The notes under the pieces are model-generated. The model saw only the letters and a program-made list of their open reading frames with translations, was not told where the DNA came from and made no database searches. Both the position numbers and the translations under genes were made by a program. A stretch of DNA of 64,000 nt from NCBI GenBank assembly GCA_964456235.1, contig CAYWDX010000001.1:35074-99073 (forward strand), in the 5' to 3' direction. The stretch is from an uncultured Candidatus Saccharibacteria bacterium. Lineage in GTDB: Bacteria; Patescibacteriota; Minisyncoccia; UBA6257; 2-01-FULL-56-20. Shown one piece after another: positions 477 to 4,494 of this stretch; the first letter of the stretch is position 1, and the number at the start of each line of letters is the position of its first letter.

Positions 477-1202
477 TTATTTTTTACCCGAGGCTCCCGA
501 ACCAGCCGAACCGCCCTGCCCGCTGCTTTTCGCCAGGGCATTTTTTGCCGCCACGAGTTCTGCTTCCTGCTTTGACGCGCCCTCGCCTTCCGCGATCAAT
601 TTGCCTTGAAAATAAACGCCCATCGTGAACACACGCTTATGCGCCGGCCCCTCTTCCGAAAGCATCTTATAGGTAGGCGTTAATTTCATTTTTTCCTGCA
701 CAAATTCCTGAAGTTCGCTCTTCGCGTCCTTGTAGCTGCGCGTGGTCATGACCTCGTCGAGATTCGACATCACGTTTTTCTTCACGAACGGGCGCACCTT
801 TTCCATCCCCTGGTCAAGATACATTCCGCCGATCACCGCTTCGATGGCGTTCGCCAAAATGACTTCGCGTGCCTTGCCCAAATCCTTGCGCTCGCCGCGG
901 GACATCAACATGAAATCTTGCAATCCTAATTTTTCCGCGACCCGCGCGAGAATTTGATAATTGACGAGCGCGGCGCGCAGCACGGTCAGCTTCCCTTCGG
1001 GAAATTTTGGGAATTTTAAAAAAAGCTCCTCGGTCACGATGAGTTCCAGCACGGCGTCTCCCAGATATTCAAGGCGCTCATTGTGCGGGACGCGCGCCGA
1101 CGGCAGTTCATTCAAATAGGATCGGTGCGTGAGCGCTTCGGTCAGTAAATCTTCATCCTTAAATTTGAAGCCGAGCTTTTTTTCGAGTTTTGCGGGGTCC
1201 AT
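477..1202 (-). CDS. rnc: Ribonuclease III
   Basis: ERLEYLGDAVLEL RNase III signature plus a C-terminal dsRBD. Its position downstream of nusB is typical. Confidence 0.9.
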   Translation of the reverse strand: MDPAKLEKKLGFKFKDEDLLTEALTHRSYLNELPSARVPHNERLEYLGDAVLELIVTEELFLKFPKFPEGKLTVLRAALVNYQILARVAEKLGLQDFMLMSRGERKDLGKAREVILANAIEAVIGGMYLDQGMEKVRPFVKKNVMSNLDEVMTTRSYKDAKSELQEFVQEKMKLTPTYKMLSEEGPAHKRVFTMGVYFQGKLIAEGEGASKQEAELVAAKNALAKSSGQGGSAGSGASGKK

Positions 1203-1211
1203 GCGCGTTGT

Positions 1212-1700
1212 TTAATTCATTGAGTTCGTCGATGGCTTGGTCGCTGATTTTTCTGTCACCGATTTTCCCGTGCTTGATTTCCGCTCGCCCATCTCCCGGT
1301 AGATCGTGCCGAGGACGCCATTCACAAAACGCGCCGCATTCGGGCCGCCATAATTTTTTGCAAGTTCAATCGCTTCGTTGATCGCCACTTTCGGCGGAAC
1401 TTCATCGGGGTCGGCATACAGCAATTCGTAGAGGCCGACGCGCAAAATGTTGCGGTCGATGATCGCGATTTTGTCGAGAGGCCACTCGGGGGCGGCTTTT
1501 ACGATTATATTGTCGATCGCCTTCAGGTGCTCGGCGACGCCCTTCATGATCTTCCAGGCAAATTCCGGCTCGTCGATGCCGGGCGCAAATTCATTGAGAT
1601 TCCGTTCCAAAATGGCGGTGATGTCTTTCTTTCGGCCATAAAAATCCCATTCGTAAAGCGACTGGAGAATGACCGTTCGGATCAAGTGTCGTGTTGCCAT
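1212..1700 (-). CDS. nusB: Transcription antitermination factor NusB
   Basis: The N-terminal [17 protein letters not shown] motif and overall length match NusB. Confidence 0.85.
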
Positions 1701-1722: not shown

Positions 1723-2580
1723 CTACCTGCTGCCGCGCGCGAACCCTATTTCTTTCCGCATTGGGGGCAAGCGCGATGCGCGAGTTTCGGCGCGCCGCAA
1801 TGCTTGCAAACGAAAAGGCGCTGCTTTTTCATGGCGAGATGCGACCGGCGCCGGCCCACTTTCCCCTTTGAATGATGTTTTACTGGTACGCCTCCCATAT
1901 GGGTTCATCATAAAAAATTTATCAAGAAAGGTCAACCGATGCGCGGGGCTCGGGCCATGTTTTGCGATCGCCGCTCGGTGCAATTTTGTGCCGTATCCTT
2001 TGTGGATTTCGAATCCAAATTTTGGATATTTTTTCGCGAGCCGTTGCATAAACCGATCACGATGAACTTTGGCGATGATTGAGGCTACTTTTACCGCATT
2101 AATCTTTTCGTCACCCTTCACGATAGTTTTCGCGTTTGGAAAACCTATATTTTTGTGATTGCCAAGAAATAATCCTCCATCGAGGAAAACTTTGGTTTTA
2201 CGCTTCAACCCGGCCGATTTTTCCAGCCGGGCGAACGCCCGTGCCGCAGCCAGATTTGCCGCGTTTGAGATATTGTGCCGCTCGATCTGGCGCGGATAAA
2301 CGCGCGCGATCGCACAGATTACTTTCGGCGCGGGCGCCGCATTGCCCTCAATGCCGCCGCGCGCGTCACCGCCCGCGCCGCCATGATTAAGAAAAAATGA
2401 AAGCCACGCCTCGCGCTGCGCCGCGCTCAATTTTTTAGAATCTTTTAATAATCCAAGTTTGTGATTTTTGAACGACGCTTTTGCCGGAAGGAGCGCTGCC
2501 GCGACGACGACGGGTCCCGCGAGCGCGCCGCGACCGACTTCATCGATGCCAACGATCCATTTCATGTTGCGAGCGTTCAC
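1723..2580 (-). CDS. rnhB: Ribonuclease HII. The ORF is over-extended at the C-terminus through rpmF, so the real end is probably near 1908.
   Basis: The [19 protein letters not shown] catalytic N-terminus and an HRLTF C-terminal motif identify RNase HII. After LDKFF the frame runs about 60 codons through the L32 gene. A T6 run at 1912-1917 would, as T5, terminate rnhB at the TGATGA. Confidence 0.8.
1746..1898 (-). CDS. rpmF: 50S ribosomal protein L32 (zinc-ribbon type), hidden in an alternate frame of the rnhB ORF tail
   Basis: Minus-strand ATG at 1898-1896 translates to [50 protein letters not shown]. This matches L32 (VPKRRTSK...RRSH, then CxxC-N11-CxxC). Tandem TGATGA stops lie 9 nt upstream in the same frame. 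Confidence 0.75.
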   Translation of the reverse strand: MGGVPVKHHSKGKVGRRRSHLAMKKQRLFVCKHCGAPKLAHRACPQCGKK

Positions 2581-2687: not shown

Positions 2688-3344
2688 TTAGAAGAGATTC
2701 TTGAAAGTGCTTCGGACACGCTTGAAACCCTGCACCGCATCGATGGTCGGTCCGCCTGCCACGTAGATGCCGTTTGCCGTGGTTGCGGCGAGGCCGTCAC
2801 CGAAATTTCTGCCGGCGCGAATGCAGAACGTTGGCAGAATCCCCGGACGTGGCGCAAATTCCACTTGCACGCCGGGGGTGAACAGTAGCCCGCTGCTCGA
2901 ATCGGTGTAGCCGCCCGGGAAAGGTCCGCCGTAGTGCGCGTTCACGTGGCTTCGCGTGTAAGCGAACTGTGCGAAGGCGCCGGCGCGAAGCGAGTGATGG
3001 ACCGCGGGTGCCCGCACGATAAAGCCGCCGCCGCCAGACCAGTCGTACTCATTCGCCGTCACCTTCCCAACATCAGGATCATCCGTCGTGTAACCATGGA
3101 CTGCCGACCGGCCGCCGATGAGGTACACGCCGAAGCTCTGCAGCGGGTTCAGTTCAAGGATACCGCTGCCACCGATGGCCACGCCATTCCGGCCGCCGAG
3201 AAAGCCGGCTCGCATGAACGGGATCGCGGTGCTGCTTGGTGGAGTGGTCGTCTGCGCGATCGCAGAAAGGGATGCGAGAACTGCGAAGGTTGCGAGAATC
3301 AAACAGCGCACAAACCGGATGGGCCGCATAGCTGCTCTCCTCAC
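2688..3344 (-). CDS. Hypothetical exported protein (signal peptide, Gly-rich, C-terminal Phe)
   Basis: N-terminal hydrophobic signal sequence ending AIAQ and a Gly/aromatic-rich body. A GAGGAG RBS precedes the start. I recognise no family. Confidence 0.6.
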   Translation of the reverse strand: MRRAAMRPIRFVRCLILATFAVLASLSAIAQTTTPPSSTAIPFMRAGFLGGRNGVAIGGSGILELNPLQSFGVYLIGGRSAVHGYTTDDPDVGKVTANEYDWSGGGGFIVRAPAVHHSLRAGAFAQFAYTRSHVNAHYGGPFPGGYTDSSSGLLFTPGVQVEFAPRPGILPTFCIRAGRNFGDGLAATTANGIYVAGGPTIDAVQGFKRVRSTFKNLF

Positions 3345-3384: not shown

Positions 3385-3744
3385 CTATAAACCGCCCAAA
3401 TTGCCAATACTATTCACCGATGCCTGGATGGCCGATTGGATCCAAACGATGGCGAGCCAAAAAGTGATAATGGTGGATGCAATGAGGAGCGTGACGGCGA
3501 TCATGCCGATTTGCTTGGCTTGCGGATCATTTGAACGGATGTATTTCACGCCGGGCCAGCGGGTGATCCCGAGATAAACGATCATTGGCAGGATAATGCT
3601 CAATGCGTAGATCCACGCCTGCGTTCCCGCGGACGTTGAGAGCGGTTCTTCGCGCAGATTTTTCCCGCAGTTTGGGCAAAAATAAAATTCTGATTGAACG
3701 GGCGCGTGGCACACCGGGCAGGCGGGCAAATTATTTTCCGGCAT
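3385..3744 (-). CDS. Zinc-ribbon domain membrane protein
   Basis: An N-terminal CPVC-N13-CPNC zinc ribbon followed by two predicted TM helices. The start overlaps the stop of the upstream HD gene. Confidence 0.6.
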   Translation of the reverse strand: MPENNLPACPVCHAPVQSEFYFCPNCGKNLREEPLSTSAGTQAWIYALSIILPMIVYLGITRWPGVKYIRSNDPQAKQIGMIAVTLLIASTIITFWLAIVWIQSAIQASVNSIGNLGGL

Positions 3745-4418: not shown

Positions 4419-4494
4419 TGGTGCCTCCTGCAGGGATCGAACCTGCGACCATCTCCTTAAAAGGGAGCTGCTCTACCAACTGAGCTAAGGAGGC
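4419..4494 (-). tRNA. tRNA-Lys (anticodon TTT), CCA encoded
   Basis: Manual cloverleaf: 7-bp acceptor GCCTCCT/AGGAGGC, a TAGCTCAGTTGGTAGAGC D-arm, anticodon loop CTTTTAA, T-arm GCAGGTTCGATCCCTGC, and a 3' ACCA. Confidence 0.85.

Follow-up and report, generated by a model that had tools for sequence, protein, structure and literature searches.

A complete rpmF gene nested out of frame in a run-on rnhB reading frame of a Patescibacteria genome, with a putative promoter in the last codons of rnhB

We found that the gene encoding ribosomal protein bL32, rpmF (1746..1898, minus strand, 50 aa), lies complete and out of frame inside the 3' end of an over-long open reading frame (ORF) of rnhB (1723-2580, minus strand), in a 64-kb stretch of DNA from a Paceibacteria/Minisyncoccia-like member of the Patescibacteria, the whole of which is called here the window. 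As a 3' extension of the upstream gene, this rnhB/rpmF overlap constitutes an already known sort of event. We consider it likely that the window DNA is right as it was assembled and that the stop codon of rnhB is absent, with an RNase HII tail that would be passive and an L32 that would be expressed independently. More tentatively, and with somewhat less than even confidence, the locus may represent a real and reproducible co-directional overlap of >150 nt, where the translated tail of RNase HII would contain, in another frame, the whole of the essential rpmF. Such overlaps would arise repeatedly in the Patescibacteria because a leaderless promoter contained in the last codons of rnhB serves rpmF.

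The nested rpmF gene and the run-on rnhB frame

The rpmF gene is intact, from its ATG at 1898 to the TAG at 1746-1748, and constitutes the sole copy within the 64-kb window. Its product matches the Pfam family Ribosomal_L32p (PF01783) over residues 4-48 with 45.7 bits against a curated cut-off of 21.3 (E=7e-12), a signal far above chance, and is 84-96% identical to the L32 of relatives, where the gene is located between rnhB and nusB. The window protein shares with the bL32 family the same short zinc ribbon with two CxxC pairs (CxxC...CxxC, here C31xxC34 and C44xxC47) as well as the conserved N-terminus, and differs from known bL32 only in its genomic setting, being nested in another ORF and left uncalled. 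The next gene downstream is nusB (1212..1700, minus strand; Pfam NusB, E=5e-33), whose exact product is present in a public protein collection, and it is followed by rnc, encoding RNase III (477..1202, minus strand; Pfam Ribonucleas_3_3, Ribonuclease_3 and dsrm). The gene order rnhB-rpmF-nusB-rnc is conserved in relatives. A first-pass annotation, made from the letters of the window, had proposed that an over-extended rnhB ORF contained a complete L32 in an alternate frame, and the Pfam match, the intact ORF and the synteny confirm this proposal. On the other side of rnhB, the window contains an unannotated ORF of 218 aa (2688-3344) with no Pfam match, which is located between rnhB and a gene for a small zinc-ribbon membrane-like protein (3385-3744, minus strand; ~120-136 aa; DZR/Zn_Ribbon_1). 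The latter gene is also found upstream of rnhB in the relatives L002, L004, L167, L169 and L171. Additionally, a tRNA gene is present at 4422-4494 (minus strand; Rfam tRNA, 70.6 bits), ~1.8 kb upstream of rnhB.

The rnhB ORF encodes 285 aa from its GTG, or 280 aa if the ATG at 2565 is used as in the public record P0001, which is 100% identical to the window product. Up to the usual C-terminus of the family (1900..2565, minus strand), the window protein covers positions 1-196 of the 199 of the RNase HII profile (Pfam RNase_HII, PF01351; 102.7 bits, E=3e-29) and keeps 51/51 of the columns that are invariant among 60 homologues. This domain occupies aa 10-218 only of the ORF and ~60 codons follow it. 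The product of 280 aa compares with a typical length of 195-230 aa in orthologues, and while the orthologous RNase HII proteins stop 0-10 residues past the HRLTF motif, the window C-terminus is 58 codons longer. The first-pass annotation had described an RNase HII ORF that carries about 60 extra codons, which is borne out by the end of the Pfam domain and by the orthologue lengths. In the C-terminal alignment with relatives, the position of the family's rnhB stop is occupied in the window by a TAT (Tyr) codon (1897..1899, minus strand), whose last two bases are the first two of the rpmF ATG (T-ATG). The run-on 3' extension (1723..1899, minus strand) continues from there for 58 sense codons until a TAG at 1723-1725, in a phase shifted one base from that of rpmF, and spans the whole of this gene; its TAG is located 21 nt past the rpmF stop and the extension ends 23 nt short of the nusB ATG. 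A Pfam search of the tail gave no match. Within RNase HII itself, the window protein has a unique Gly/Ala-rich insertion of ~20 residues (2320-2395, minus strand, residues ~58-82) that is absent from 59 aligned homologues, and record P0004 has a different insertion, rich in Gly, Ala and His, elsewhere in its RNase HII.

A promoter-like site at the 3' end of rnhB

A promoter scan gave a single site on the minus strand, TTGACC-17-TATGAT, with 10/12 matches. Its -35-like hexamer, TTGACC (1930..1935), falls in the Leu-Thr codons of the HRLTF motif, and its -10-like hexamer, TATGAT (1907..1912), follows 17 nt after it and precedes the rpmF ATG by 8 nt. Taken alone, this site is at chance level for the region, and its significance comes from the relatives. 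TTGAC occurs at the Leu-Thr codons of HRLTF in 49/52 unique rnhB-rpmF junctions, and a TAnnnT is found at 16-18 nt from it in 44/52, being at exactly 17 nt in 40 of them, against a background of ~3%. Despite falling at a third-codon position, the first T of the -10 box has an information content of 1.3 bits. The residues encoded over the box vary widely, the hexamers including TATCAT, TATGAT, TACAAT, TAGTAT and TAAAAT, and where rnhB stops early (HRLTFVS-stop) the box is still present, now in non-coding DNA. Two relatives with HRRTF, without TTGAC (L105 and L117), present a separate TTGACG-17-TATCAT, 9 nt before the rpmF ATG. In the rpmF family the commonest gap from the -10 box to the ATG is 7-9 nt, and a Shine-Dalgarno (SD)-like 4-mer was found upstream of 3/80 rpmF genes only. 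No SD sequence was found upstream of the window rpmF.

From this conservation we infer that rpmF, with nusB and rnc, may have its own sigma-70-like promoter overlaid on the end of rnhB. L32 would probably be made from its own leaderless or near-leaderless transcript, independently of the translation of rnhB. Judging from the aligned junctions, the constraints on the protein and on the promoter are superimposed at the rnhB 3' end. The embedded, probably leaderless putative rpmF promoter would be the most useful by-product of this analysis. Among Actinobacteria, Deinococcus and archaea, mRNAs of the leaderless type are frequent. The candidate site resembles the internal promoters that drive leaderless mRNAs in that here too the -35 and -10 lie inside the upstream gene with a spacing of 17 nt, the -10 box precedes the start by 7-9 nt and there is no SD sequence. 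It differs from them in being recognised from conservation alone, in uncultured Patescibacteria. Moreover, and unlike leaderless systems, many relatives have a longer distance from the -10 box to the ATG, of 13-38 nt and sometimes of 70-110 nt, so strict leaderlessness would not be universal. A literature search for leaderless translation in Patescibacteria/CPR gave nothing specific.

Other features of these junctions deserve mention. The K-S-A-I-M 'C-terminal peptide' of RNase HII (L087-L171; window 1907-1935) coincides with the -10 box TAnnnT located 17 nt after TTGAC. In L101, L108, L110, L133, L106/L104, L109 and L122, spacers of 65-110 nt separate the rnhB stop from the rpmF ATG and contain short-word inverted repeats, e.g. 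gtagtatgtagtagg ... cctactacattctacatactac, with no Rfam match; they may function as leaders or terminators, or belong to a small repeat element. Longer rnhB-rpmF spacers, of 150-180 nt, are found in L123, L130 and L137 and contain two GC-rich hairpins, CCCGCC-nnnn-GGCGGG, also with no Rfam match, for which a repeat element and a structured leader are both conceivable. An Rfam scan of the window junction and of the long rnhB-rpmF spacers of relatives gave no known RNA.

The junction, its relatives and the readings of the overlap

Along the minus strand, the sequence of the junction is CAT CGG TTG ACC TTT CTT GAT AAA TTT TTT ATG ATG AAC CCA T-ATG GGA GGC, with the rpmF start after the hyphen. 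Five bases of the T6 run (1912..1917, minus strand) close the spacer of the putative promoter, and the sixth opens the -10 box. The tandem TGA TGA (1910-1905), which sits in the L32 frame, overlaps the last four bases of the -10 box and extends two bases beyond it. The tandem stops and the T6 run may thus be explained by the putative promoter, because its -10 box overlaps the stops and the T6 run is the end of its spacer. The first-pass annotation had drawn attention to the run, to the TGATGA stops and to what a T5 run would entail, and all of them are present in the sequence as it described: with a hypothetical T5, rnhB would end ...LDKFL-TGA-TGA, the first TGA lying 9 nt ahead of the rpmF ATG. 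The RNase HII C-termini of 60 close homologues conform to HRLTF-[LIV]-x-K-S-A-I-M-x-x-stop. When read with T6, the window stands in residue-by-residue register with this C-terminus, as F-F-M-M-N-P fits S-A-I-M-x-x and is followed by TAT in place of the stop. For example, relative L090 reads ATC ATG AAC GCA TAA cactcac ATG where the window reads ATG ATG AAC CCA TAT GGG, and given T6 the distance from HRLTF to ATG-AAC is of 8 codons in both, whereas T5 would put the window one base short of every relative. Additionally, T6 sets the spacer between TTGACC and TATGAT at 17 nt, as in 40/44 relatives, while T5 would set it at 16 nt, as in 4/44. Because a Tyr codon occupies the stop position, what we observe would be the loss of a stop codon, the frame itself being unshifted. 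The alignment of rnhB C-termini with those of relatives, which had been suggested in the first-pass annotation as a check, therefore placed the T6 frame in register, and relatives with an RNase HII extended over rpmF, which that annotation had listed among the observations that would speak against its proposal, were found as well.

Three relatives also read from rnhB across an intact rpmF in the same phase (P0002/L001, P0003/L004 and P0004/L002). The L002-type read-through is probably real DNA, and it was found in ENA/MEGAHIT, JGI 3300031671, JGI 3300031670 and Logan SRR8554483 assemblies. The support given by L001 is weak, as nusB, rnc and smc are plainly frameshifted in its assembly. At the stop position, the window and L002 have TAT and L004 has TAC, a Tyr codon in each of these three independent lineages; the junction of L004 is otherwise of the L100 type, and in L100 the stop is at -7. 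In an unbiased sample of metagenome rpmF loci, read-through was present in 1 of the ~48 junctions with rnhB directly upstream of rpmF, that one being the L002 contig again, and ~98% of the rnhB-rpmF junctions have a normal stop. When ranked by core identity to the window, the read-through lineages take the 70th, 98th and 121st places and each of them is nearest to normal relatives, which argues that the events are independent. In this sense, the stop-less run-on is, as far as the compared lineages indicate, a sporadic event in unrelated members of this Patescibacteria clade. Other candidates came from a GTDB genome scan with matches to residues 265-276 and were rejected: L007, L009 and L013 have normal stops, tblastn having joined the alternate rpmF frame, and L035 has a normal stop with no rpmF nearby.

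From these comparisons, the tail looks like a passive by-product of the position of the next stop, without selection of its own. The tails are 0.60-0.64 identical to that of the window, and the untranslated 'virtual' tail of a normal locus (L088) reaches 0.64 with equal nucleotide identity, a control by which a conserved extension was ruled out as the source of the similarity among the P0002-P0004 tails. Between 17 and 19 of the 22-25 nucleotide differences fall at third-codon positions of L32, which are first positions of the tail. The tail of L004 terminates inside rpmF. A word-index protein search with the tail alone gave no match, and the sole matches of an exhaustive search among 1.84 billion representative proteins were P0003, two repeat proteins and three short ORFs in an alternate frame of rpmF. 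We also found that the read-through phase is left open in 74% of the synonymous-codon shuffles of the window rpmF, and an open overlapping frame over this gene is unremarkable; the other phase is closed in most relatives by a conserved CAG-TAA at codons 5-7. Across the family, the read-through phase is stop-free in 30/83 unique rpmF genes (L001-L166) against 20.3 +/- 2.8 in within-gene synonymous shuffles, and 0/300 shuffles reached 30. This excess of open frames probably reflects TA avoidance and shared ancestry. A selected open alternate frame was rejected as a candidate, the family-wide excess being confounded and the window rpmF itself having P(open)=0.74.

We regard as unlikely that the true genome has T5 at 1912-1917, in which case rnhB would end LDKFL-TGA-TGA 6-9 nt before rpmF and the overlap would be an artefact of assembly or sequencing. 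The attraction of such an indel is that a one-base change brings back tandem stops just before the rpmF ATG, at a homopolymer, which is a classic error site. The end obtained with T5 would still be plausible for an RNase HII, as some relatives terminate already at HRLTFVS-stop, and its 16-nt spacer would be acceptable given the four relatives that have it. Also in its favour, the read-through relative L001 belongs to an indel-rich assembly. The nearest rnhB relatives are just ~72% identical to the window, which leaves room for a base-level error at the junction. However, codon colinearity and the predominant 17-nt spacing come from T6 and not from T5, and the tandem stops mostly overlap a conserved -10 box, TATGAT, that recurs in relatives such as L142. 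Elsewhere in the window, 20/20 adjacent same-strand ORFs tested, including CysRS, DnaB, YchF, AtpA, AtpH, MAP, Adk and ribosomal proteins, are complete separate genes and none is split. From the same 323-kb contig, the 280-aa tailed RNase HII, nusB and rnc all have records in NCBI as well as in Logan, which may be two assemblies of the same reads, in which case a systematic read error would be common to both. A like read-through was, moreover, reproduced in the Illumina/MEGAHIT lineage over samples and assemblers. The first-pass annotation had offered either an indel, with T6 standing for T5, or a real read-through as the cause of the fusion: given the colinearity, the spacing, the intact neighbours and the two sources, the indel is not supported, and the read-through is the better option, as a missing stop without fusion of frames. 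A residual base-level error at the junction keeps a low but appreciable probability. A homopolymer should not be taken as the culprit by default; in this case, the comparison of lengths with relatives indicated that the suspect run has the correct length.

Much less probable is a functional dual coding, where the basic tail would be a selected extension of RNase HII and the rnhB/rpmF overlap would be kept by selection. The family-wide excess of open read-through frames (30/83) and the alignment of the tails of four lineages to each other would agree with it, but the similarity of the tails is no higher than that of virtual tails of normal loci, shared ancestry and a general avoidance of TA confound the excess, and the frame of the window gene would mostly be open anyway. 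Substitutions that gather at the third-codon positions of L32, a tail of variable length that in L004 ends within rpmF, carriers that are polyphyletic and not each other's relatives, a normal stop at nearly all junctions and the finding of no such tail family among the representative proteins also argue against selection. A programmed recoding is more improbable still. Here a +1 shift at TTT_TTT_A would take the ribosome to the TGA-TGA stop, yielding an RNase HII of normal length and a termination-reinitiation coupling to rpmF. The U-rich run does directly precede the out-of-frame tandem stops, and a GGGAGG is located a few bases downstream. However, the other read-through lineages differ in their junction sequences and lack any similar pairing of a slippery site and a close out-of-frame stop, as the nearest stop in the L32 frame is inside the HRLTF codons in L004 and 27 nt upstream in L002. 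No conserved stimulatory element was found among these junctions, and the spacer and -10 box of the putative promoter already explain both the U-run and the TGATGA. Translational coupling via TGATGA was also considered and rejected, with no support in relatives.

Proposed origin of the overlap, known overlaps and gene annotation

We therefore favour the loss of the rnhB stop codon next to an independently expressed rpmF. In the normal layout, the rnhB stop would be placed in the few bases that remain between the promoter, contained in the last ~12 codons of rnhB, and the rpmF start. In the window this gap is of only 8 nt, a TAT that overlaps the rpmF ATG would have taken the stop position, and the rnhB frame would run on, falling by chance in the one stop-free phase of rpmF and extending for 58 codons over all of it. 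The stop may have been removed by a point change, by the loss of one A from a TAATG overlap or by a 9-nt spacer deletion with respect to an L090-like ancestor. The tail would evolve at the rate of the L32 synonymous sites and would belong to no protein family. On a leaderless rpmF(-nusB-rnc) transcript, or on one with a leader of 1-2 nt, the rnhB frame would never be read, so the loss of the stop would be nearly neutral, and for this reason the same accident could recur sporadically across unrelated members of the clade. The firing of the promoter, the leaderless mRNA, the translation of the tail and the mutation behind the lost stop are inferred; the data show the anatomy, the colinearity given by T6, the recurrence among relatives, a tail free of selection, the conserved promoter motif and the uncalled L32. 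If the overlap is real, with a translated tail and a promoter of this kind, what looks in this clade like a 'conserved C-terminal peptide' of RNase HII would really be a -10 box. The case would also illustrate how genes may be packed in tiny genomes, where a promoter laid over the end of the upstream gene, with the start codon 7-17 nt further on, leaves almost no space for the upstream stop. In such packing, the loss of a stop would yield long overlaps that are apparently tolerated.

The window overlap belongs to category iii (3' extension of the upstream gene) of Pallejà et al. 2008, as rnhB is longer than its orthologues at the 3' end and the extension covers rpmF fully. These authors found no genuine long co-directional overlap among 715 analysed and attributed the 3'-extension cases to 'misannotation or sequencing error' (Pallejà et al., 2008). 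In this category, the upstream gene has either lost its stop by mutation or undergone a frameshift close to its 3' end; in the window, with relatives ~72% identical, colinearity argues against a frameshift at T6, and the stop position has a sense codon, TAT. As in the category iii cases, rnhB is longer at its 3' end only, orthologues stop at a conserved position, the extension is unconserved and the ORF closes at the next chance stop in or past the neighbour gene. In contrast with them, the window overlap takes in all 153 nt of an essential gene, rpmF, and not merely its 5' end, and the rnhB run-on recurs independently in several lineages of one clade. Furthermore, in one relative at least, the read-through was recovered from several assemblies and is thus probably real DNA and not an error. 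The overlap fits the stop-disruption route to unidirectional overlaps that was modelled by Fonseca et al. (2013).

The nested gene escapes annotation, as the first-pass annotation had anticipated for automated procedures. RNase HII with its tail, NusB and RNase III of the window are all present in the public collection, and the window L32 is absent from its 15 billion proteins, as is the L32 of the L002 and L004 lineages. By comparison, a control L32 from the normal locus L170 is present there and is named 50S ribosomal protein L32. At all read-through loci rpmF is uncalled. L32 is a universal marker, and its omission could affect estimates of genome completeness, phylogenies built on ribosomal proteins and reports of 'missing ribosomal proteins' in the reduced Patescibacteria. 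Additionally, in the normal relatives L167, L168, L169 and L171, rpmF was left uncalled by ENA, JGI and Logan, and only the NCBI record (L170) calls it. Since rpmF is uncalled at several normal loci, this short and SD-less gene may be hard for gene callers even without an overlap, and the under-calling of L32 seems to be general in Patescibacteria metagenomes.
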